Origin: Candidatus Babeliales bacterium
GTDB taxonomy: Bacteria > Babelota > Babeliae > Babelales > JBFXEV01
NCBI GenBank assembly: GCA_050179755.1
Contig: JBFXEV010000001.1
Coordinates: forward strand, 143,881-207,880
Direction: 5' to 3'
Length of the DNA: 64,000 nucleotides
The position numbers were made by a program, and so were the translations under genes. Under the pieces are notes generated by a model that was not told the origin of the DNA, did no database searches, and saw only the letters and a program-made list of their open reading frames with translations. This document shows positions 15,755-58,399 of the stretch, in pieces. The first letter of the stretch is position 1. Each line of letters begins with the position of its first letter.

Positions 15755-17489
15755 ACAAAATCTACTGGGCATACTATTCATCATTTCTTGCACAACAATG
15801 CCCTTGCACCAAGTTGATGGCACAATCACATGCTTTAGTAACGGCAAGCCAGTTTCACACCTTAAAACCACGTTGCAAACAGGACAACAACAAGTCATTG
15901 TAAAAACTAAAATATTAATGCCTTGTCTTGCACTAGCAGTACATATTGAAGAAGGGCAGGAGGTCATTCCATTACCCAACATACCACCATTTGAGCTTCT
16001 TCATGTAGCAGCATGCCTGCAAGCGCATTATGAACTTATGCACGCTCGTTCAAAAGAAGAATATCAAGGAAAACGCCAACAACTTGATGCACAGCTTAAT
16101 TCAGAAGAAAAAGTTCACACAGCGCTTATGGCAGCAAATTATTTAGATCATAAAGATCTGCGTGCTCGATGCGCATCCCTTTGGGCCACTAAAAATTACT
16201 CGCGCTCATTTATGCAAGCTACGCCTGACGAAGTTGAATTTGAAATTGCACAGCGAAAACTTGAACAAACATCACTCCATGACGATATTGCCTATTGGAT
16301 GGCTCAAAAAACTTGGATCAACCCCACAAGGACACTTAATCATAAGAACCGGTCAGTTTGGTCACTGGCTTCCAATAGCTCTGGCACGCAAGTTGCCGTT
16401 GGCGATTACTTGGGAAAAATTAGAGTATATGAGCAGGATCAAAAAGAACCTAGTATTAGCATACAAGCACATGCTACTGCCATCACTGATATAGCATTTA
16501 ACGAAGATGATACTTTGGTAGCCACTTGTGCAAGAGATGGCTCACTTCGTTTTTGGGATATTGAAACTAAAGCACAAAAATCGCAACTTGACAGCGACCA
16601 TCCGCTTGCCCCCTATGCCTTTAAAACGCATTACAACACAGAGCAAATTGCCTATGATGAAGGATCTAACATTATAGTCGTAAACCCCGCCAATGACACA
16701 GAAAAAGTACTTGAAGGCCATAGTGATTATATTTGCTCTCTTGCTTTTAATAGTGAAGGCACCATGCTTGCATCAGGGGGGGAAGACTGCTCCATAAAAC
16801 TCTGGGATCTTTCCACTGGTGCGTGCATGGCAACATTAATTTCTCATACAGAATCGGTGGCTTGCGTACAATTTAGCCCTGATGACAGTTTACTTGCAGC
16901 AGGATCTATGGATGCTAGTATTTCTCTCTATGATGTTTCAACGCAAGAATTAGTTACAAAACTTGAAGGCCATAAGAACAAAGTTTGGTCGGTAATTATT
17001 TCAAACGATAATCAATTTTTATATTCTGCCTCAGTTGATGGCTCGATTAAAATCTGGCATTTGCCTACTGCGCGCTTGATTAAAAATTTAGTGACTTTTC
17101 CACGTACCCAGCTGCATGCAATGGTTTTGCAACCCAATGGCAGATTAGTTACTGCAGCATTAAATGGAGATATACAATTTTGGGATATCCCTACAATAAT
17201 CCATCCCATACAAGCGCTGCAAAAGTATATGCAAAGCGACAGAAGTTTTGATCAAGCCCAATTGATTGTTGATGCTTATGATGCACCTCAAAAAGAGCCT
17301 CTTGATTGTTCAACAAAGCGTGAACGAGCAAGAGCTTTTGAAACACTTAGACCTGAAATGCAAGACTTACTTATACACAACTTGCATGTAAAGCCCCCAA
17401 AGAAAAGAGTAAAATCAAGAAAGAAAGGTTCACAAAATAGTTCATCACGCAAACGCGCTACCGCTGATGCAATTGAGCCATTCAAGTAA
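15720..17489 (+). CDS. Skp1/BTB-like plus WD40-repeat protein, paralog of the upstream gene
   Basis: Likely start ATG 15720; VIPLPNI and ALMAANYLDHKDL match Skp1 motifs; GH..WD repeats; basic tail PPKKRVKSRKK..RKR. Confidence 0.88.
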   Translation: MKKMQITFQTIKQNLLGILFIISCTTMPLHQVDGTITCFSNGKPVSHLKTTLQTGQQQVIVKTKILMPCLALAVHIEEGQEVIPLPNIPPFELLHVAACLQAHYELMHARSKEEYQGKRQQLDAQLNSEEKVHTALMAANYLDHKDLRARCASLWATKNYSRSFMQATPDEVEFEIAQRKLEQTSLHDDIAYWMAQKTWINPTRTLNHKNRSVWSLASNSSGTQVAVGDYLGKIRVYEQDQKEPSISIQAHATAITDIAFNEDDTLVATCARDGSLRFWDIETKAQKSQLDSDHPLAPYAFKTHYNTEQIAYDEGSNIIVVNPANDTEKVLEGHSDYICSLAFNSEGTMLASGGEDCSIKLWDLSTGACMATLISHTESVACVQFSPDDSLLAAGSMDASISLYDVSTQELVTKLEGHKNKVWSVIISNDNQFLYSASVDGSIKIWHLPTARLIKNLVTFPRTQLHAMVLQPNGRLVTAALNGDIQFWDIPTIIHPIQALQKYMQSDRSFDQAQLIVDAYDAPQKEPLDCSTKRERARAFETLRPEMQDLLIHNLHVKPPKKRVKSRKKGSQNSSSRKRATADAIEPFK

Positions 17490-18317
17490 TTCTTTGTAAC
17501 CAAATTTTAAAGCCCACATATACGCTGTGTGGCCTAAGTTATTTGGCACATCAATCAATTCACTGAATGCCTGTTTATTATTTGTTGCCTCATAGACGTC
17601 GTTAAGTAGAGTAAGTATATATCGTTCTTTATGTTCTAATTGCATATCATAAGGCAATGCACATGAATACATAATAAGGCCATGCACAATCGTATTACCC
17701 AGCTGATCACGTAAACTAAACAATTGTTCTTCTTGCATGTATTTGAGTAGATTACTCACCATGCTGAAACTACCATTCCTTAAATTGCGCCACAGGTTGT
17801 GAGGATCTTTAAGCATTTCATACGTTTCCCATTCATATCCAAGTAATATTTGGCGAAAGGCTTTATCTTCTACGTAATCTCGTGCAGTTTTACCATATAT
17901 ATCTTTTATGCGTGGATCGGCACCAAACATATAGAGATATGCAGCAATATCCTGATATCCTTTTTGTACTGCATGAGTAAACACTGTTTGCCAATGAACA
18001 TCTCGGCTAGTAACGTAATACTTATCAAAATCTACTTTCTTTAAAATCGTATCAATTGTTTGTTCAATACCTTCTTTTTTTTCTTTTGGAGTATGTGTAG
18101 CATCAAGGGTATCAGCATGGTGCACTGCTGCAATTAACAATGTATATTCATGTTCATCTTTTGCTTTTTTTACATCATAATATTTTGATGCGTTAATAAG
18201 TTCACATGCCTCTTTGTAATGCCCTTCTTGAAAAAGCGTAAACGCCGTATGTACTTCTATTTTTGGGTTCATTATACCAAGGGATACTAAAAGGGAAATT
18301 AATAATTCATGCAACAT
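17445..18317 (-). CDS. Ankyrin repeat protein
   Basis: YTLLIAAV, GADPRIKDIYGKTARDY, DQLGNTIVH, NNLGHTAYMWA; AAGGAG SD. Confidence 0.85.
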   Translation of the reverse strand: MLHELLISLLVSLGIMNPKIEVHTAFTLFQEGHYKEACELINASKYYDVKKAKDEHEYTLLIAAVHHADTLDATHTPKEKKEGIEQTIDTILKKVDFDKYYVTSRDVHWQTVFTHAVQKGYQDIAAYLYMFGADPRIKDIYGKTARDYVEDKAFRQILLGYEWETYEMLKDPHNLWRNLRNGSFSMVSNLLKYMQEEQLFSLRDQLGNTIVHGLIMYSCALPYDMQLEHKERYILTLLNDVYEATNNKQAFSELIDVPNNLGHTAYMWALKFGYKELLEWLNCISGSAFA

Positions 18318-18466
18318 TTTTTAACTCCTTATTATCGTTATTTACACTCTTATTTTAACAAATGAAGGTTTTATTGGACAATAATTAAATTATGTTTGAT
18401 TGTTTTATGTTTTGATGCCAACAACGGTTACGTAGAAGTGCACCCGTTCATATACAATAGTTTATT

Positions 18467-18858
18467 GCTGGGCCACTACGCGTGGCAGCGCGCCCATCTT
18501 TTGGGTTGCCAAAAGATGGCGGAGAAAAACAAACTAGGAGGCATGCTATCCTCCTAGTTACCTCCCATAAGGTCTTTGCCGATTACTACTGTTATATTCT
18601 CTCTTGTTACTTTTTTCTTTGGATGTTCATTGTCAATATAACTTCCTAATTATTTGTGAGCCAGTTGACATCCATCCACCCACACAGAAATATGCATAGA
18701 AATTAAAATTAAGCGACGGCGAGATTTAACCAAGATGATTTAATAATCTAGTTGATAAGGTATGGGGAGCAGCGAGGGATAGCATGCCCTCGCTTGCTTT
18801 TTGCACCCTTTTTGGCACCAAAAAGGCGTGCGCCCGCCGCGGCGTAAGCGGCACCAGC
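18467..18858. mobile_element. Non-coding element with inverted three-hairpin arms, copy A (MITE/REPIN-like)
   Basis: Left and right arms are imperfect inverted copies; 18656-18858 is closely similar to 47168-47366. Confidence 0.7.
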
Positions 18859-19064
18859 GAAAAACAATTGTACAGATAAAGACTTTTTCTAAATACAGAA
18901 TAAAACAGAATGCTTCTATGCCCTTCTTATGCTGATCGATACCGCCCAAAACAAACACTAAGAGCATAAGTGTCCAGGTTGTTCAAATCTATTTCACCAT
19001 TATACCATTGCCCCTAAAACACTGATTCCTATATACTAAAAGTAAAGGGGAAAAGGAGATTATA

Positions 19065-20099
19065 ATGGCACAAAATTCTATAAAAAATATCATTATTGGC
19101 ATAATCGCTCTCAATCTCGTTGTAATCATCCACGAATTTGGCCATTTTGCAGCATGCAAACTTTTTGGCGTAAAAGTAAACACCTTTTCTATAGGCTTTC
19201 CACCAGTTATTGCTTCCACAAAAATAGGCGACACAACATATCAACTTGGCGCATTGCCCCTAGGCGGTTTTGTATCCCCTGATCCTCAAGGTGTACAAAA
19301 ACTGCCATATATAAAGAAAATGATCATGGTACTTGCAGGTATTTTTATGAACTTTTTACTTGCATTCCTTATTTTATTTGCTCTCGCCCGCAGAACTAAT
19401 CGAAAACCAATTCCCGTCATTGACACCGTGCTTCCGGATTCACCAGCAGCTCATGCTGGCCTGCAACCTGGCGATCGCTTTATAGCGATTAATAGCATTC
19501 CCTTTGATCAAGAAAACATAACTGAGCTATTGCAAACCATCTATAATTCAGGTGGTAAGCAAGTAACTTTTATTATTGAGCGTGATGGCAGAGAACTTAC
19601 TGTTCCCGTACATATTACTAATCATAATCCATTGCTTGGTGATGGAGTTGGTACAGTTGGTGTATCGTTCCAGACTGAAAAAGTGCCTACTCCCACGCTC
19701 TGGGAATCAATCACCCATACAAGAAAAAGTTTTTCTGCCCTCTTTGCAAGCATGGGGCCTACAGTTGCAAAAATGTTGCGTTCTAAAGGGAAAAACAATG
19801 GCGGCGTTATAGGGCCAATTGGTATTATGTCGTTACTTGGCAAAAGCTTGAGTTACGGACTTGCTACCTTTTTATATTTTATGGCAATCATAAGCTTTAA
19901 TATAGGCGCTTTTAACCTGCTCCCCATCCCATTTCTTGATGGCGGAGTTGCAGCACAATATACCTTAGAAGCGCTCACCGGCACTCATCTGCCTCCAGCC
20001 ATTGTAACGATTATCTATATTATTTTTATAATGTTACTCGTTTTCATGATGATCCGTTTGACTGTCGGAGACGTGCGGCAATTACGCAGAAAAAGTTAG
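19065..20099 (+). CDS. rseP: RIP metalloprotease RseP (M50, PDZ domain)
   Basis: HEFGH, FSIGF, LPLGGFV, PDZ (SPAAHAGLQPGD), GPIGI, NLLPIPFLDGG. Confidence 0.93.
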   Translation: MAQNSIKNIIIGIIALNLVVIIHEFGHFAACKLFGVKVNTFSIGFPPVIASTKIGDTTYQLGALPLGGFVSPDPQGVQKLPYIKKMIMVLAGIFMNFLLAFLILFALARRTNRKPIPVIDTVLPDSPAAHAGLQPGDRFIAINSIPFDQENITELLQTIYNSGGKQVTFIIERDGRELTVPVHITNHNPLLGDGVGTVGVSFQTEKVPTPTLWESITHTRKSFSALFASMGPTVAKMLRSKGKNNGGVIGPIGIMSLLGKSLSYGLATFLYFMAIISFNIGAFNLLPIPFLDGGVAAQYTLEALTGTHLPPAIVTIIYIIFIMLLVFMMIRLTVGDVRQLRRKS

Positions 20100-20178
20100 C
20101 CCTGTTGCACGGGACTTAAAGCTCCACTACACTTTTAGGTAAAAGAGCTTTTTAACCTTCACCTCAGTAAAGGATTTT

Positions 20179-20673
20179 ATGAAGAAACTTGCCATTGCTC
20201 TATTATTTTGCGTATGCCCACCCCTGTATAGCGCGTCTAACATTATTCCCTTGGAAAAATTAATGTTCTATTCCATAGTTGCTGATAATGCCAAAGAAAA
20301 ACTAGCGCACGAATATCCGGAATATACTGCTTGGCTTTCTGATACTAACGCTCTTTTGCTCCTTAACTTTATTACTACAACAGATAAGCCTGTGATTATT
20401 AAATTCGGTGCTGACTGGTGCATGCCCTGCAAGAGCCTTGCACCCATTGTGCACGAAGCCGCTTTTGAATGCAGTAATGACGTCCTTATTATTGACATTA
20501 ATATTGATGATGCGCCTACGATCCGCCAAATGTTTGATATTCAAACTATCCCTACCTTAATTTATTTTAAAAATGGCAAACAAAAGGATCGCACCCACTC
20601 TGTTAGTAAAGCAACCCTACTTACTAAAATCAAACATTTAATTGACCTAAAAAGTCCTTTATTTACCCCGTAA
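20179..20673 (+). CDS. Exported thioredoxin family protein
   Basis: Signal peptide; WCMPCK, IPTL..FKNG. Confidence 0.88.
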   Translation: MKKLAIALLFCVCPPLYSASNIIPLEKLMFYSIVADNAKEKLAHEYPEYTAWLSDTNALLLLNFITTTDKPVIIKFGADWCMPCKSLAPIVHEAAFECSNDVLIIDINIDDAPTIRQMFDIQTIPTLIYFKNGKQKDRTHSVSKATLLTKIKHLIDLKSPLFTP

Positions 20674-20790
20674 AAATAGAAGACTTGTCCTGTATTAAAG
20701 CATTATTTCCGACGCAAGATTTGCCCAGATAACAATAAAAAGGTATAGTAAAAAGTAGATAGTAACGTAGTAAAAAAGTAGGAATATCTA

Positions 20791-21300
20791 ATGAATAAAA
20801 ATAGTATTTTTGCCCTTACCATGCTGGCAGCTACTTGGGGCTTAACATTAAATGTATGTGCAGGGCAAGCGGCTAACGTACAAGACATCAAACAATTAAG
20901 CGATGCTGGCATTCAGCCGCAAGACCTTAAAGTATATTTGCAAAAAAATGCACCCGATTTAGTAAAATTTGTGGGCACAACGCCTAGTAAGCTTGAAGTA
21001 CAATTATTTACCACTATTGCGCAATCAAAAAAGCCTGTAGTAGTTAAATTCTATATAAATGGATGTGGCCCCTGCAAGCAAATGGGTAGAATAGTGGAAC
21101 AAGTTGCAAAAGAACTTGGTGAAAGCATATTGGTAATTAATATAGAATCAACCGAAGCTACCCGCAATCTTATGCGCGTTTTGAATGCAAATGGAGTTCC
21201 TACGCTTGTTTTCTTTAAAGATGGCAAAAAAGTAGATCAATTTACCGGCACGCTCAGCGCACAAGAATTAACAGGTAAGCTTAAAAAGTTAGTGAACTAA
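20791..21300 (+). CDS. Exported thioredoxin family protein
   Basis: Signal peptide; GCGPCK, VPTLVFFKDG. Confidence 0.88.
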   Translation: MNKNSIFALTMLAATWGLTLNVCAGQAANVQDIKQLSDAGIQPQDLKVYLQKNAPDLVKFVGTTPSKLEVQLFTTIAQSKKPVVVKFYINGCGPCKQMGRIVEQVAKELGESILVINIESTEATRNLMRVLNANGVPTLVFFKDGKKVDQFTGTLSAQELTGKLKKLVN

Positions 21301-28437: not shown

Positions 28438-29562
28438 ATGAAACGTTCTTATCACTTACTTGTTACGTTGGTAACACTTAGTTATTCATTATCAGCAGTT
28501 GCTGGTTGCCCGTGCGCGCGTGAAAAACGTGCAATGCGCGCAAAACGAACTGCTGTTCAGCCAATGGCACCAGTAACTTCTGTTTCTCAATCAGTTGGCA
28601 ATATAGTTTCTGATCTTACACAGGGCAATGTAGTTGGAGCAACCGGTCAAGCAATTAGAACAGCACCTGATGCTACAGCATCTGTAGTACAACCCAGTAT
28701 GCCAAAAACAGAAAAAAGGCTAATGGAAGTTGAAGCGGCGCCTATGCCTAAGAAAATGAAAACTGAAGCTCCAGCACCAGCACCACAAGTCATGGAAAAT
28801 AATAGAATTGATCTCTCGAAACAGTCTGATTTTGATGCACTTATAACCAAACATCCACACGTTATCGCAGTGTTTACTACAACTTGGTGCGGCCCCTGCA
28901 AAAATTTAAAACCAGTTCTTGATGAAATACGTACAAGTAACAAAGATGTAATGTTTGTGTATGTTGATGGTGATGAGTATCCAGGGCTTGTTAGCAAATA
29001 TGCAAGCGTGGGATTCCCTACGCTCAAATTGTTTAAAAATGGCAAAGAAGTTGCTCAAGCAATTGGTGGACAATCAAAAGATGAAATACAAAGCTTAATC
29101 AATCAACATTTTAAAGGTGGCGTGCCAACATTTGTAATGGGTGATGCTACTGAATCAATAGAACAAGTGGCAGCTCCCGCACCACAACCTATTAAAATGC
29201 CTGCACCTGCTCCAGCACCAATGCAAGAATCCATGACAGCAAACAAAATAGTCCTTGTAAAAGACTCAGATTTTGATGGTCATTTAAGAAAAAACAAAAA
29301 CGTTATTGGCATCTTTACTACCACATGGTGCGGGCCATGTAAAACGCTTAAACCAGTACTTGAAGAACTTGTAGGATCAAATGCAAACGTAACGTTTGTC
29401 TACGTTGATGGTGATAGATTCCCAAGTCTTGTAAAAAAATATGCAAGCATTGGATTCCCAACACTTAAATTCTTTAAGAATGGTAAAGAAGTTGCACAGA
29501 CTGTTGGTGGCAGATCACGCGATGAATTGCAAAGCATGATTAACCAACATTATAGAGGATAA
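28438..29562 (+). CDS. Exported tandem two-domain thioredoxin with Pro/Ala/Met-rich linkers
   Basis: Signal peptide, two near-duplicated WCGPCK..GFPTLK.FKNGKEVAQ domains; AAGGAG SD. Confidence 0.9.
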   Translation: MKRSYHLLVTLVTLSYSLSAVAGCPCAREKRAMRAKRTAVQPMAPVTSVSQSVGNIVSDLTQGNVVGATGQAIRTAPDATASVVQPSMPKTEKRLMEVEAAPMPKKMKTEAPAPAPQVMENNRIDLSKQSDFDALITKHPHVIAVFTTTWCGPCKNLKPVLDEIRTSNKDVMFVYVDGDEYPGLVSKYASVGFPTLKLFKNGKEVAQAIGGQSKDEIQSLINQHFKGGVPTFVMGDATESIEQVAAPAPQPIKMPAPAPAPMQESMTANKIVLVKDSDFDGHLRKNKNVIGIFTTTWCGPCKTLKPVLEELVGSNANVTFVYVDGDRFPSLVKKYASIGFPTLKFFKNGKEVAQTVGGRSRDELQSMINQHYRG

Positions 29563-34417: not shown

Positions 34418-35611
34418 TTAGGCTGCCATAAATGCTTCTAAAAAGCCAAGCCATTTGGTCCATTCTGACCATAACAGCTTTTCATATGAATATTCAATAC
34501 GGTATAATGGCAAATAGATCGTTAAGCCTTTGGCATCACGGTATTTTTGGCTTACCGAATTTGCAATCACGGCTTTAGAAATAAGTGGCAATGTAGAACG
34601 AATTAAATCTTGCAAATATATTCTGCTTTTTATGTCTAAATTAATAGTATTAATATTAGTAAACACCGTATTTAGCCATTGATACAAATCAATATATGAT
34701 TCACCACCAAATGGCAAACATACACCTTTCTGTAATGTAGTTACCAATCCTTCACGAATGATCGCTTTATCTCTTTTCTTTAGTTCTTTACTATAAAATT
34801 GACTAAACAAATTTAATTTATTTACTACTGCATCAAGTTGTTTCAAATCAATCGCTGAAAGTGTGTACTCTTGATTTGTTTTTTTATAGCACTCTGCATA
34901 CGCTTTGACCATATGCTTTGCCAAATCAATTGGCTGGGGAGCACCTGATTTAAATGGCGCCAGCGTCAATGCATATTGATAACCATGCCCAGGAATAGTA
35001 TCTTCTGACGCCACATAATAATCTGCATAGCGGGCAAACGTATAAGCAACTTCTAATGAGCCCATTAAGCATGCATCACAAGCCACAAGATCAATTTTTT
35101 TGCCACCACGGAATTTATCACAAATCCAGCCAAATGCTGCAAAGCAATCACGATCAGTCAAATAATGGTGGGTAGTATCATCAAAACAAATACCTTTTAT
35201 TGCACTTGGCCTTCTGTTGAGCGGTCCGCTACCATGATCCCACAATACTACCGCAAAATGCTCTGATGGATAATCAGTATGCGCCCATTCCAAAGCTTCA
35301 ATAAACGTTGCAACATCACCACTGTCTTTTACTGTCACATCTCCAATAGGCACTAAGTTATCTTTTTCAACATAGTATTTAATGGTTTTCTTTTCTTCAT
35401 TTTCTCGTTTGACAGTAGTATATGCAATAATGTTTACATATTCATTAGAGCCAATTTCCATCATTTCTTTAAGATCAAGATCTGCATATTTTGCTAAGTT
35501 ATTATCTCCTGCAATATACACAAGAAAGGTCCAGGGCTTGTTATCAGCACAGATTAATGATGCCACAAAAAATAAATATATATTTACAAAACTGAATATT
35601 CTTTGGTTCAT
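34418..35611 (-). CDS. Clostripain family (C11) cysteine peptidase
   Basis: WTFLVYIAGDNNL, WDHGSG, ACDACLMG, VASED. Confidence 0.9.
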   Translation of the reverse strand: MNQRIFSFVNIYLFFVASLICADNKPWTFLVYIAGDNNLAKYADLDLKEMMEIGSNEYVNIIAYTTVKRENEEKKTIKYYVEKDNLVPIGDVTVKDSGDVATFIEALEWAHTDYPSEHFAVVLWDHGSGPLNRRPSAIKGICFDDTTHHYLTDRDCFAAFGWICDKFRGGKKIDLVACDACLMGSLEVAYTFARYADYYVASEDTIPGHGYQYALTLAPFKSGAPQPIDLAKHMVKAYAECYKKTNQEYTLSAIDLKQLDAVVNKLNLFSQFYSKELKKRDKAIIREGLVTTLQKGVCLPFGGESYIDLYQWLNTVFTNINTINLDIKSRIYLQDLIRSTLPLISKAVIANSVSQKYRDAKGLTIYLPLYRIEYSYEKLLWSEWTKWLGFLEAFMAA

Positions 35612-35678
35612 GCCTGCTCCTTAAGAATTAAGGCTTAAGAAATTTGCTATGCTTTCTAAAATTTCTATAATTACAATC

Positions 35679-36890
35679 TTACTTCTTCAAATATGCTTGC
35701 AAGAAACTTGTCCACTGAGCAGCACCGGTCCACAATAAATTCTTGTAAGAAGAGTCCATTACGGTACGCGGAAAATAAATAGTCATACCATATGATTTGG
35801 CATAATTTTTACTATTACAACGAGCAAGCACTGCTTTGGTAATAAGTGGTAATGTTGCAGTAATTAAGTCTTTCAAGGTTTTAGTATCTTGCGTACTTAA
35901 TTTCATAGTCACTATATTATTTTGTATATTACTAAGCCATTGATATAAATCAATATAATCCATGGTACCATAATGTATGGTTGCCGCTGGTGCAATGAGT
36001 GCGGCCAATGCTTGTTTAAGATTAGTTTTGTTAGGAGTTTTTAATTGCGAGATAAAGAATTGCGCTATCTTATTAAGATTAGTCACCACTGCATCAAGTT
36101 GTTTTAAATCAAGTGCAGACAGTGTATAATCCCAACCAGATGTTTTATAAGCATCGTCATACGCCTTTACCATGCTTTTTGCAAAATCAACAGGTTTTGG
36201 ATTTCCATTTTTAAGAGGTGCAAGCGCACGTGCATATTGATAACCATAACCAGGAATATTTTCTTCTGATGCAACAAAATAATCAACATACGTGCGGAAC
36301 GTATGGGCAACTTCAAGTGATGCCATTAAGCACGCATCGCATGCTACAATATCAATCTTCTTGCCATTGCGATACGTATTATTTACGTACTTAAATACGT
36401 CGCAACAATCACGATCAGTCAAAAAATGGTGCGTTGTATCATCCCAACATATACCTTTCCAACCTTGCGGGCTTCTGCCAGGATTCAAAGTTCCACTACC
36501 ATGATCCCATAAAACCACCGCTATGCGATCAGACGGATAATTAACTACCGCCCATTCCAGTGCTTTTTTAAAGGTTGCAACAGAACCACTATCTTCTACC
36601 GTGGTAGAGCCAATCTTTTTTAATGATCCTGGAAGAACTTCATACCGATTTGTTTGTTTTGGTTTGCCTACTTGTTTTTCTGTAGTGTAAGCAATGATAT
36701 GCGCATTTGCATTGGAGCCAACTTTCATCATCTCGCCCAAATCAAGCGTCACAAATTGTGCAAGGTTATTATCGCCAGCAATATAAACAAAGAATGTCCA
36801 TGGTTTTTTGGGGGCCTTGGCTGCCTTACAAGGCAGCCAAGCCATTGATACTAAACTAAGTGCTACTATTACTATTCTTCTTTTATTCAT
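35679..36890 (-). CDS. Clostripain family (C11) cysteine peptidase, tandem paralog
   Basis: WTFFVYIAGDNNL, WDHGSG, ACDACLMA, VASEE. Confidence 0.9.
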   Translation of the reverse strand: MNKRRIVIVALSLVSMAWLPCKAAKAPKKPWTFFVYIAGDNNLAQFVTLDLGEMMKVGSNANAHIIAYTTEKQVGKPKQTNRYEVLPGSLKKIGSTTVEDSGSVATFKKALEWAVVNYPSDRIAVVLWDHGSGTLNPGRSPQGWKGICWDDTTHHFLTDRDCCDVFKYVNNTYRNGKKIDIVACDACLMASLEVAHTFRTYVDYFVASEENIPGYGYQYARALAPLKNGNPKPVDFAKSMVKAYDDAYKTSGWDYTLSALDLKQLDAVVTNLNKIAQFFISQLKTPNKTNLKQALAALIAPAATIHYGTMDYIDLYQWLSNIQNNIVTMKLSTQDTKTLKDLITATLPLITKAVLARCNSKNYAKSYGMTIYFPRTVMDSSYKNLLWTGAAQWTSFLQAYLKK

Positions 36891-46790: not shown

Positions 46791-46867
46791 TGATTTTACG
46801 TTAATAGATTGAAATGATTCTTTAAGTTTTAGTAGAAGTTCGACTATAAAATCTACATTCTTTACCC

Positions 46868-47366
46868 CTGGTGCCGCTACGCGCGGCGACGCATGCCTTT
46901 TTCATGCGAAAAAGGACGCAAAAAGCATCAGCATGCTTCCGCCTACGCTAATCCAGGCCTTCATGGCTTGGCTAGCTTTGGCGGACAGGGCTGAACTGGC
47001 TGCCTGACCGCCGTAGCCTTGGCGAAGGCTGGTTCGCTGAAGACAAAACTACTGCACGCCTATTCAGGCGCAGTAGTGCTACAGCTCCATCAGACTTTTT
47101 TATTTTATCCACCTGAACTTACTATCACAGCTTATTCCTGTAAATAAGTTAAGCTTATAAATTAATGGTGAGCCAGTTGATATCCATCCACCTACACAAC
47201 AATACACATAGAAGAATAACAATATGCGACGGCTAGAATTAACCCTGTGGATATTATAAGCTGGATGATAAGGTATGGGGAGCGCGAGGGATAGCATGCC
47301 CTCGCTGGTTTTTGCACCCTTTTTGCCACCAAAAAGGCGTGCGCCTGCCGCGCGTAGCGGCACCAG
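46868..47366. mobile_element. Non-coding element with inverted hairpin arms, copy B, with nested family-2 REPs
   Basis: Perfect 20-bp terminal inverted repeat CTGGTGCCGCTACGCGCGGC; right 200 bp similar to 18656-18858. Confidence 0.72.
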
Positions 47367-47415
47367 AGATAATGCACGTATAATATCAGTGGAACTTCTA
47401 AATATACATTATGTC

Positions 47416-54904: not shown

Positions 54905-56230
54905 TTACTTAATTTTAATACTAGTAAGATGCTTAATCAATGTCCAAATAATGCCATCTTTAATGCGAGAAGCATTAGCTCCAGAATCGGCAACACTATA
55001 TTCAATAATGCCATGATGCTTATGCACCACAAGCGTGATCCAATGCCGGCTTCCAGAAACCGATCCGGGCTTGCCGCTCATAAGACCAACCACAAAAGCG
55101 TGTATAAAATCATCTACTTTTGCAAGACGCTCAGCTATCTCGATAATTTCTTTATATTCTCCTTCACCTTGATTCAAGAGCGGCACGTTATCAATAATAG
55201 TTATGCCATCAAAATGAACTGGTAAATCTGCAAGCAATCCACCAACTTGCTGTTCATGCTTAAGTAAAAGGCCAATTTCATTTTCATTGACCCAATCACC
55301 TTGTGCATCAAACTTGTTATCAGGATGTGCTGCATTATACTGTTGAAGCGCTTCAGCTTTTGAAATTTCAAATATATGTTCAGCATTTATTGTATTTTCG
55401 GGCACATATAATGCAAGCGCCTCATCACTTTTTGCATAGGCCACAAAATCAAAATTCTCGAGCCCTTCAATATCACCTTTCATAATTCGCTGAGACTTTT
55501 TGACTGCGTCAATAAACAGAGCACGCGTGATAGTAATTTTTGTGCTCGCTTCTAAAGGTTGGCCCTCAAGTGCAGAGAATAATGCTGCCACTAATTGCGG
55601 GCTTAGCTCAGTTGCTAGCACGCCTTGGTAAAAGCCACGAATTTTTGTTTTAAAACGGTCTTGTAATTTCTGATCAAGATGTTGCGCCTCAAGTGGAACT
55701 TCTACATGCTGCACGTCATTATAAGAAATTAACAATGCATACAATTTTTGATCAATATGCCATTTGATCGCACGGCGATACGTATTTTCTAGCACTAATT
55801 TACGCCAACCGCCTTTAGGGTCTTTTTTATTAAATAACTGCTGTACAATAGAAAGATCAGTAAGCTGCGGTTGCCCTGCTTTGCCAGACAGCATGCGGCA
55901 TATATAGATAGCATTTTTTAAAGATTGATAACCACAACTTGCATCGCCACCATGATCAGCAGATCCATATTGATTAAGTACGTGCAATTGCTTAATAGTG
56001 GGCCCCCAAATGGAACCGTACACTGCACGATTAGTGCGCATTTGCTTGGCCGCATACACACCTGCTCCTGCAAGTGCGCCTACTGCAAGCAATGCACCAG
56101 AATGTTCTTTTGCAAAGTTTAATGCGCGATCAAAATAATTCTGATCGCCATCCCCTGAATCCATAGCATGAGCTGGGAATGCTATGCACCATAGAGATAT
56201 AAACAAGATAATGTGTTTAACTATATTCAT
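54905..56230 (-). CDS. Papain-fold (Josephin-like) cysteine protease candidate, array member 3
   Basis: AHA-MDS leader; LNQ..DASCGYQSLKN, GDW, HWITLV..YSVADS; paralog of 22655..24007. Confidence 0.65.
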   Translation of the reverse strand: MNIVKHIILFISLWCIAFPAHAMDSGDGDQNYFDRALNFAKEHSGALLAVGALAGAGVYAAKQMRTNRAVYGSIWGPTIKQLHVLNQYGSADHGGDASCGYQSLKNAIYICRMLSGKAGQPQLTDLSIVQQLFNKKDPKGGWRKLVLENTYRRAIKWHIDQKLYALLISYNDVQHVEVPLEAQHLDQKLQDRFKTKIRGFYQGVLATELSPQLVAALFSALEGQPLEASTKITITRALFIDAVKKSQRIMKGDIEGLENFDFVAYAKSDEALALYVPENTINAEHIFEISKAEALQQYNAAHPDNKFDAQGDWVNENEIGLLLKHEQQVGGLLADLPVHFDGITIIDNVPLLNQGEGEYKEIIEIAERLAKVDDFIHAFVVGLMSGKPGSVSGSRHWITLVVHKHHGIIEYSVADSGANASRIKDGIIWTLIKHLTSIKIK

Positions 56231-57315
56231 TTTCGTACCTCTGTCTCATCATCTTCTAACTCATCACAGAAAGCATCTAGCTCTGCATCGCTTAACTTGC
56301 AAATTGCTTTAATAACATTACGCGTAATTACGGGGCGATACTGCTCAATTTTTTTAGGATCAACCAGATCGCGTATTTCATCTTTTGCTTGAATTTGTAT
56401 TTTACGATCTTGCAATAACGCATCTATGCTGCTCAATCGAGCATCTATTACCTTTTGAATCTCTTGCTGTAGTGACTGCATTGCGTTTGTATCTTCTTGT
56501 GCTACTTCAAGTAAATTTGCGCAAACTACTTTGGTCATCTTAAAATGATTAAGTGAACAAAACAAGGACTGTTCAAGCATGCATTGAACTGCCTGCGCAT
56601 TACCCTTTTTTACTGCTACATACAATGCTGTTTGGCCACTTGAATTCGTTAGATCAATTCGAGCGCCCCGCTCTAGAAGTTGGGGCAGCAATGCACTATG
56701 CCCTTCTTCCAAAAGCATATGTATCGCTGTATCACCATCATTAGTTTGCGCATTGAGGTCTACATGTGCTTTGCAAAACAACTGCACCACGTCGGCAGCA
56801 CCAGTTCGCGCTGCCCAGTGCAACGGCGTGCAACCATCTGCATCTTTTACATACTGCCTTTGTACATTTTCAAAAATAATTTTTGCTAAGTTTGCACGAT
56901 TAAAAAGAGCTGCAAAATGCAATTGCGTAAACCCATGAAAATCCTCGGGTTGCAAATGTGCGCAATCGGCAAGAATAAATGTATCAATTTTTGCATCATC
57001 TTCCACATAAGAACTTGCAAGATCAGACTCTTTTATAAGAGCTACCAGTTCACTTTTAACGTAGTCTACGGTAAGTAATTTTTTGCTCTCTAAAGCTTGT
57101 GTAACTCGCGATTGTCTTTGAGCATTGCGCTCATGCACTGCTACCTGTGGAGTATGTTTTATTGATGGCTTAAACACAGAACTAACAGCCCTGCTAATCC
57201 TCATTTTTAAGCGACCAAATAAACCCTTATCACCGTTGCCTGAATCCATAGCGCGGGCAGGGAAAACAATACAAAATAAGAATAAAATAAGGGTGATTTT
57301 CTTAAAAATATTCAT
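56227..57315 (-). CDS. Ankyrin repeat protein, array member 2
   Basis: ARA-MDS leader; GFTQLHFAA, GCTPLHWAA, GDTAIH, GQTALYVA. Confidence 0.9.
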   Translation of the reverse strand: MNIFKKITLILFLFCIVFPARAMDSGNGDKGLFGRLKMRISRAVSSVFKPSIKHTPQVAVHERNAQRQSRVTQALESKKLLTVDYVKSELVALIKESDLASSYVEDDAKIDTFILADCAHLQPEDFHGFTQLHFAALFNRANLAKIIFENVQRQYVKDADGCTPLHWAARTGAADVVQLFCKAHVDLNAQTNDGDTAIHMLLEEGHSALLPQLLERGARIDLTNSSGQTALYVAVKKGNAQAVQCMLEQSLFCSLNHFKMTKVVCANLLEVAQEDTNAMQSLQQEIQKVIDARLSSIDALLQDRKIQIQAKDEIRDLVDPKKIEQYRPVITRNVIKAICKLSDAELDAFCDELEDDETEVRK

Positions 57316-57334
57316 TTTTGAAACGCCCTTATCA

Positions 57335-58399
57335 CTAATTATTGCTGTTATTAATTGACGATATTGGTTCTATACCCATTAATGCTGCTCGCACATTTTG
57401 CTCAACAGCTTCGCGGTAAAGCTCATCAACATTCTCCGCTTTCATAAAATCAAATGTTCGCGCAACGCCAGGAATTCCATGAACATGCCTCCAAAATGCT
57501 GCCCCTAGATCAAATTCAATATCCGGATTTTCAGTAAGAAATTGTCTTAGCATATTAAGTCTATAATCAACAATAACGGGAACCAACTTGGCCAATACTC
57601 TTGGCCTTGTAGCAACAGGAATATTTACGCATAATTCCTGAAACCATTCAAATGGGCACATTGCCACCAATTGCTCTAATGATGATTCACTCTGAACGTA
57701 TGCTAATTGACACACATTTGAAATATCTTCTGGCAAGAATGAAAGAATTTTGCATATAACGTTATCTGGCAAGTCAATTATTTTTAATACTTGGTATGCT
57801 GCATCAAATCGAGCCCCAGCCTCCAATGAACCATTGCTTGCGGGAGTAAAAGATGCGTTTTCTAATAAAACTTTAATTAGTTGGCAGTGCTTGTCAGTTG
57901 GAGGTGGCAAAACAATGTAGATCATACTCTCAATATTTGATCTATTAATTTTATACCCGCAATTAAAAAAGAAATCCATTACCTTAACATCTCTCTTTTC
58001 TAGTGCCCGCACAAGAGCCCATTGAGCTTCTCTAGAATCAATGTCAATCTCACCATCTCTCATAATTTGTTTGGCAAGATCAAAATTGTGTACTTTTAAT
58101 GCATTGGCAAAAAGCTCACCCCATTGCCGCCGGTGCAACTCTTGTTGTGCTCGCATGCGATCGAACTCCCCACCACGTCGCTCTTGTTCAAGCCTTTGTT
58201 GACGGTTCTGATACCAGTCATAGCATACAATGGCTAACCCCAATGCACCCGTAACACTAGCTATTATTACGGGATGTTCTTTTGCGATATTCCATATACG
58301 GCCAAAAAAGCCTTGATTATTATCTTGCTCCATGCCGAAGGCAGGTTGAGCAACACACATTACAGATAAAATAAGGGTTATTTTCTTGAAAATATTCAT
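57335..58399 (-). CDS. Degenerate ankyrin protein with F-box-like motif, array member 1
   Basis: AFG-MEQ leader plus TM; ankyrin-like helices; DLPDNVICKILSFLP. Confidence 0.7.
   Translation of the reverse strand: MNIFKKITLILSVMCVAQPAFGMEQDNNQGFFGRIWNIAKEHPVIIASVTGALGLAIVCYDWYQNRQQRLEQERRGGEFDRMRAQQELHRRQWGELFANALKVHNFDLAKQIMRDGEIDIDSREAQWALVRALEKRDVKVMDFFFNCGYKINRSNIESMIYIVLPPPTDKHCQLIKVLLENASFTPASNGSLEAGARFDAAYQVLKIIDLPDNVICKILSFLPEDISNVCQLAYVQSESSLEQLVAMCPFEWFQELCVNIPVATRPRVLAKLVPVIVDYRLNMLRQFLTENPDIEFDLGAAFWRHVHGIPGVARTFDFMKAENVDELYREAVEQNVRAALMGIEPISSINNSNN

Follow-up and report, generated by a model that had tools for sequence, protein, structure and literature searches.

An intergenic element in the genome of a Candidatus Babeliales bacterium, here called copy A, belongs to a dispersed repeat family whose sites are occupied in a sister species as well more often than expected, mostly by a different type of arm. 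With a probability of roughly 0.55, I read the family as a non-autonomous, REPIN-like repeat with a single-stranded DNA form, in which triplex-pseudoknot ends would be read by an enzyme that acts in trans, copies arms and prefers sites already occupied. The initial annotation of copy A, which had offered an undescribed non-autonomous element or a structured RNA under selection on its fold, is partly supported. The former description is supported, as the family is multi-copy, intergenic and non-coding, whole units are duplicated, pairing is kept through many changes, and no Rfam family matches. The RNA version is the less likely reading.

Copy A and its repeat family

The window is the whole stretch of 64,000 nucleotides that was analysed, and all positions below without a genome handle refer to it. 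The parts of copy A, and the second copy, B, are the following.

18433-18891: whole copy A, 459 nt, flanked by a divergent ankyrin-repeat gene and an M50 peptidase/PDZ (RseP-like) gene
18433-18471, plus strand: left end motif and AT-rich tail
18472-18486, minus strand: left hairpin 1, with a loop of five bases, G...A-closed on the minus strand
18494-18533, minus strand: left arm core (predicted third strand, hairpin 2 and pseudoknot)
18494-18519, minus strand: left hairpin 2
18525-18529, minus strand: left T-run, the predicted third strand
18530-18533 with the loop of hairpin 2, minus strand: left pseudoknot pairing, short (about 3 bp)
18532-18559, minus strand: left hairpin 3
18656-18770, plus strand: b-type arm extension, conserved blocks with variable spacers between them
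18771-18794, plus strand: right hairpin 3
18795-18831, plus strand: right arm core
18795-18797 paired with loop bases 18815-18817, plus strand: right pseudoknot
18798-18802, plus strand: right T-run, predicted third strand on the T5/A5 duplex 18809-18813/18820-18824
18803-18808 with 18825-18831, plus strand: right lower stem
18836-18852, plus strand: right hairpin 1, with a loop of seven bases, G...A-closed
18853-18891, plus strand: right AT-rich tail and end motif
46833-47400: copy B, 568 nt, between convergent DUF2608 and RsmE-like genes

The outer ends of copy A are a conserved motif (TAGAAG at 18433, and TTCTA ending at 18891), and the bounds first proposed, 18467-18858, miss about 35 nt on each side. 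Within these ends the three hairpins claimed initially are present: hairpin 1 with a loop of 5 nt at 18472-18486 and of 7 nt at 18836-18852 (hence longer in the right arm, as described), hairpin 2 at 18494-18519 and within 18795-18831, and hairpin 3 at 18532-18559 and 18771-18794, which differs in stem between the arms and is fully paired in both. The pseudoknot, the third strand, the true ends, the mixable arm types and the replacement at the same site had all escaped that picture. The loop of hairpin 3, taken to be invariant, is indeed the same 8 nt in both arms of copy A, but is found in only 10 of the 53 parsed arms of the family. The only candidate for a target-site duplication, which the initial annotation had not seen, is a TA at both ends, indistinguishable from the end motif.

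The internal segment 18656-18770 is, as had been seen, common with the copy at about 47160-47283 (D7 79%, D9 85%). This b-type extension, of which 10 copies were collected from one anchor in two genomes, shows a weak consensus fold and no credible reading frame. Nor does copy A contain an open reading frame of 80 amino acids, its longest stop-free stretch being 62 codons, in agreement with the initial statement that no credible one exists. Its left arm is mixed, with a hairpin 2 like that of c-type arms and a b-type hairpin 3. Contigs from short reads of three landfill DNA runs, which may be those from which this genome came, match 17000-18827 and 18805-20500 with zero differences, and therefore the combination of arms is not an assembly chimera. 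Folding of copy A is far beyond chance (z of -6.2 as RNA and -4.2 as DNA; 0 of 100 shuffles). In copy B the left arm is a-type and interrupted by an unrelated hairpin repeat, and the right arm is b-type. This second, short hairpin repeat family is inserted in the loops of several arms (46930-47030 in the window; 775.5 kb, 1263.5 kb, 80.2 kb and others in the genome). Most other direct repeats of the window are paralogous gene runs, thioredoxin-like and others (20179-21300, 28438-29562, 34418-36890 and 54905-58399).

The family is larger than the two-copy element first assumed. In this genome (G000; 1.53 Mb, a single contig), whose gene content, rich in ankyrin and WD40 proteins, fits Babeliales, iterated profile searches yielded 45 arms, which lie at 23 loci, 18 two-armed and 5 single. 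In a sister species of the same genus (G001) they yielded 29 arms at 17 loci, eleven of them two-armed; the proteins of the two genomes gave 1043 reciprocal hits, with a median identity of 68.5%. All 29 two-armed loci of both genomes face outward, and there are ten single arms and one tandem pair. Two-armed elements measure 356-886 nt from end to end as mapped by the end motif, with arms of 130-350 nt, and inward of hairpin 3 the arms carry extensions of at least six types. These types combine in many ways, like with like too, and sub-modules recombine. Whole units are also copied, since arms and central junction are common to two pairs of loci (98% across 335 nt in one pair, 92% across 373 nt in the other). 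At several loci a truncated outer arm precedes a complete one, which is what one would expect of a site used more than once. The orientation of flanking genes is unbiased in G000 (10 tandem, 8 divergent and 2 convergent, vs. 253, 164 and 59, respectively). At least two further intergenic repeat families occur in G000, some at tRNA ends, and at 487-530 kb of G001:C1 seven copies of a conserved promoter-like leader precede a gene series.

The end motif lies 50-69 nt beyond the A-run in 34 of the 53 parsed arms, where about one would be expected per 10-nt bin. Its distance from hairpin 1, on the outer side, is some 35-45 nt. A G stands before its TAG in 29 of 49 ends, and extra copies in the flanks are not enriched. 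These 34 arms place an inverted terminal motif around a non-coding core that has no open reading frame, which raises the alternative of a classical MITE. The TAGAAG-type end would then be a short terminal inverted repeat, the TA a target duplication, and the element would be moved by a DDE transposase of the IS630 or IS5 kind that was lost or only visiting, with gene conversion shuffling the arms and the folds being secondary. The fixed outer motif, the TA at both ends and the duplicated whole units speak for it, and the family resembles MITEs in its non-autonomy, inverted ends, lack of transposase, size range and strong fold, as MITEs are described in PMC3184786. I nevertheless consider this origin rather unlikely. 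The end motif is only 5-8 nt long and is lost or reversed in relatives of the same order in which the fold is kept; arms are interchangeable and without left or right identity, many of them single; and no transposase lies between the arms of any locus read, no cognate IS having been found and the one IS5-like remnant having unrelated ends. DDE enzymes act on duplex ends, which would explain neither the strand-specific covariation of the triplex nor the replacement at the same site described below. In L167, L228, L281 and L283, all from one lineage, a TAGAA-type motif lies at the same distance from hairpin 1 in the orientation opposite to that of this genome.

A predicted pseudoknot and third strand

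On the outward strand each arm reads, in order, hairpin 3, a segment of 2-6 nt, a T-run, a linker, a second T-run, a loop, an A-run, the partner of the linker, hairpin 1 and the tail, with a paired linker of 6-12 nt and T, T and A runs of 3-7 nt. The short upstream segment is predicted to pair with the loop of hairpin 2, which would form a pseudoknot. The parser resolved 45 of 74 arms, and the 35 distinct combinations of upstream segment and loop among them scored 3.71 for this pairing vs. 2.61 ± 0.18 when shuffled; none of 5000 shuffles reached their score. The length of the third-strand T-run tracks that of the stem run (Spearman 0.60, 42 distinct arms). Hairpin 3, which like hairpin 1 was not used by the pseudoknot parser, reaches at least 6 bp in 51 of 53 arms vs. 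13.7 when shuffled; hairpin 1 has 10 distinct stems, and both have many compensated stems. The pairing also has a strand bias, with 16 G·T vs. 4 A·C pairs when the outward strand is read. The covariation of the stems seen initially is borne out by anchored counts, which extend it to the pseudoknot and the third strand, though the shuffle tests overstate its significance because the copies are related. I regard a fold with pseudoknot and third strand as very probable. As modelled, it would be an H-type pseudoknot in which the first loop runs parallel to the A-run and occupies the major groove of the T/A stem.

The three tracts could, judging from their sequence, form an intrastrand triplex of class IV order, and their covariation is three-way. 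Where a stem pair is flipped, G takes the place of the third-strand base in parallel register; this is so for 17 of the 17 intact cases among the metagenome matches listed. At least 124 distinct matches came from the metagenomes, and 109 of those listed keep the lower stem intact. These 109 show T/T/A in 92 and G/A/T in 17 cases, and none of the other 25 combinations allowed by a scan pattern that is unable to return C·G-C triplets. The 60 matches in 11 of 151 genomes of the order comprise 21 T/T/A and 39 G/A/T. The G/A/T form occurs in 8 of the order genomes, from 3 families, but not in this genome, and probably goes back to a single inherited event.

Beyond the two genomes, a covariance model built from 53 arms and run on 151 genomes of the order found the family in 12 of them, in 5 of 21 families, and in these relatives arms of 410-740 nt stand back to back with no gene between them. 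BLASTN of copy A, one of the checks proposed initially, gave matches in G000 and G001 and in none of the others among 61 genomes. At least 123 metagenome stretches, with a GC content of 32-66%, contain the core motif, often without hairpin 1. BLAST of copy A matched none of 72,556 plasmid and 50,697 phage records, exact-pattern scans returned nothing from viral contigs and no b/c-type core from metagenomes, and the one match in genome contigs was a chance match inside a coding gene. Rfam gave nothing at gathering or E-value thresholds (Rfam 15: 0 matches in the window at the gathering score, best E 2.0 over the element), as the initial reading as an undescribed element implied. No description of the family was found in the mostly open-access literature searched, and the supplements and database of PMC4666352 may contain A/T-rich motifs of this kind. 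In L344 (G030:C18), a 3.9-kb contig that may not belong to its bin, a longer repeat that includes the triplex core is present as two direct copies 1.3 kb apart.

The strand and the loops bear on whether the arm works as DNA or as RNA. H-type pseudoknots with a U-rich loop in the major groove are an RNA motif, known from telomerase and SAM-II, and the arm could accordingly end a transcript in such a pseudoknot with U·A-U triples, stabilising its 3' end or binding a protein. The strong RNA fold fits, as do wobbles of the G·U type on the folding strand (the G·T pairs counted above), and the five-base loops of hairpin 1 presumably also fit an RNA GNRA-like consensus. However, G-N-A makes up 23 of the 35 distinct triloops on perfect stems of the outward strand vs. 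2 in the reverse (114 arm segments), and RNA tetraloops are practically missing (GNRA 1 of 29, UUCG 0 of 29). G-N-A is a stable DNA loop according to PMC10085684, and G·T-A counts among the known non-canonical DNA triplets (PMC5814803, PMC6698731), described in the latter as typically among the most stable of these, although in that paper's own assay it was only comparable to other non-canonical triplets. At a U-A pair of the MALAT1 RNA triple helix, 30% stability was attained with C and with U but not with G (PMC4836648), so that a G at the flipped pair is disfavoured in RNA. Together with the unbiased orientation of the flanking genes and the lack of an Rfam match, this makes the transcript reading improbable. 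Single-stranded DNA is favoured over RNA because the G·T-A triplet is of DNA type and because of the G-N-A triloops, and I think it fairly likely that the working form is DNA.

Same sites, different arms in two species

Of the 827 syntenic gaps between the two genomes, the family occupies 8 in both species, 10 in G000 alone and 4 in G001 alone, whereas 0.26-1.2 shared gaps are expected (Fisher p = 4e-12 to 2e-7, depending on the gap-size cut-off). Six of the 9 shared gaps listed differ in arm type, including the site of copy A, which in G001 holds a single arm of another type. Arms are therefore likely to be overwritten in place, although the shared occupancy could be plain inheritance followed by gene conversion. 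At orthologous gaps of G000 and G001 that are empty in one species the alignments are too diverged to place the insertion point, and contigs of three DNA runs held no empty-site joint, the one joint found matching another copy.

Persistence of occupied gaps over the long time implied by 68% protein identity would also be expected of signals that serve the host as single-stranded DNA, for example in priming or replication restart, and that would keep their places by inheritance and become homogenised or exchanged through recombination, without being selfishly mobile. One arm on each strand, DNA-type loops and the lack of a linked partner gene agree with this. The patchy occurrence in 12 of 151 genomes, the many loci that are empty in the sister species (the 10 and 4 gaps above) and the recent, near-identical duplications do not, and I hold such a host function to be about as improbable as the transcript reading.

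The REPIN-like reading accommodates the shared sites as follows. An arm would fold in DNA made single-stranded during replication or repair, and its hairpins, with a pseudoknot clasped by a parallel triple helix, would likely be the recognition signal for a copying enzyme that acts from elsewhere. This nuclease or transposase may nick near the end motif and copy or paste arms, with a preference for sites that already hold one, which would give both spread and overwriting in place, as has been proposed for REPINs (bioRxiv 10.1101/2024.10.14.618302); recombination between copies would shuffle the modules further. Enzyme-driven copying and overwriting of arms is, on this analysis, slightly favoured over its alternatives.

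Partner enzymes, known systems and meaning

The absence of a partner enzyme counts against enzyme-driven copying. In G000 and G001 there is no match to IS630, rve_3 or reverse transcriptase, and across the five transposase and reverse transcriptase families tried no autonomous IS shares the ends of the element. The IS5-family element of G000 (G000:C1:456.4-457.1 kb), single-copy and broken, was rejected for its unrelated ends. A syntenic, single-copy, IS200-like Y1 protein (G000:C1:216896-217327, minus strand; G001:C1:1128821-1129249, plus strand) has an acidic tail, and its gene lies upstream of a nucleotide-translocase-like gene. Compared with the IS200 protein of G033 and the usual motifs of such proteins, it apparently lacks one HUH histidine and the catalytic tyrosine, and it is possibly a domesticated, inactive transposase. 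As a Y1/RAYT partner it was discarded, being degenerate in appearance and without flanking arms, and Y1 is absent from 5 of the 12 carriers. The Y1 gene that adjoins an arm in G033 is an ordinary multi-copy IS200 with its own ends; three identical copies stand head to tail there with a period of 566 nt (L330, G033:C1:1253004-1254495), and two more lie elsewhere in G033.

DUF559 occurs in 0 of the 12 carriers, and GIY-YIG is uninformative, as its presence in 140 of 151 order genomes leaves no co-occurrence signal, and none of the matches in G000 and G001 lies at an arm locus. Besides two XerC/D-like proteins, both genomes encode a third, well conserved and syntenic tyrosine recombinase (G000:C1:1260709-1261644; G001:C1:1643083-1644012), which is 1.3 kb from one element in G000, but its orthologue in G001 has no nearby arm. 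Clustering of neighbours showed no gene family recurring beside the core among 347 open reading frames of the metagenome loci listed, and Pfam, run on 60 of 62 inside-adjacent open reading frames, gave no recurring family and one rve transposase among the 60.

The closest likeness is to REPINs and REP-BIMEs with their RAYT (TnpA-REP), which PMC3479197 and PMC3733652 describe as intergenic, non-coding, inverted pairs of hairpin units of mosaic build. The likeness extends to the handling of single-stranded DNA, vertical retention and orthologous spaces that stay occupied while the type changes (bioRxiv 10.1101/2024.10.14.618302); in that work 13 of 20 always-occupied REPIN spaces hold mixed types, comparable with the 6 of 9 shared gaps that differ here, from the 8 in 827 occupied in both species. 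However, a REPIN consists of two short inverted REP palindromes of 20-40 nt within 200 bp, while the arms here have several hairpins and 130-350 nt, with a predicted pseudoknot and triplex. The 5' GTAG of REPINs is at the foot of the hairpin, the TAG motif here about 40 nt from hairpin 1. REPINs have a cognate, single-copy RAYT flanked by repeats, whereas 5 of the 12 carriers have no Y1 gene at all, and REPINs number hundreds of copies where this family has tens.

The BoxC/PIT/TM(ECO) motifs are likewise dispersed intergenic repeats with three tracts able to form a DNA triplex from one strand, and PMC4666352 names no mobilising enzyme for them, as none was found here. TM(ECO) is described there as a G/C-rich, purine-motif triplex of class II with 9-nt stems and short loops; the present motif is A/T-based and of pyrimidine type, in class IV order, with runs of 4-7 nt, a paired linker, a pseudoknot and flanking hairpins in two-armed units of 350-900 nt. 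The Ssn GIY-YIG nucleases with their NTS/SRM hairpins (PMC11893778) illustrate how dispersed hairpin repeats in single-stranded DNA can be recognised by small nucleases that act in trans, although the GIY-YIG genes here stand apart from the arms. The family would thus appear to work like REPIN/BIME and to resemble BoxC/PIT in kind, yet it fails the defining features of both.

A broader reading, which I put forward only tentatively, is a widespread, undescribed class of single-stranded-DNA mobile elements whose ends are pseudoknotted DNA triple helices, recognised by an enzyme that copies arms into sites already holding arms, so that slots persist across species while what they contain is overwritten. 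Equally tentative, as part of that class, is the idea that T·A-T and G·T-A triplets are put to use in nature under selection. Were the family only a MITE with conversion, its significance would be modest. Whether intrastrand DNA triplexes form and act in bacterial genomes is a long-standing question, and the BoxC/PIT motifs have never been given a function. Here, three-way covariation that includes the DNA-specific G·T-A triplet falls on a short core of oligonucleotide size, which makes it directly testable, and this core recurs in metagenome contigs across the whole GC range given above. The swapping of arms at the same site would extend the REPIN idea of overwriting to a system without RAYT, which implies an unrecognised enzyme or pathway.
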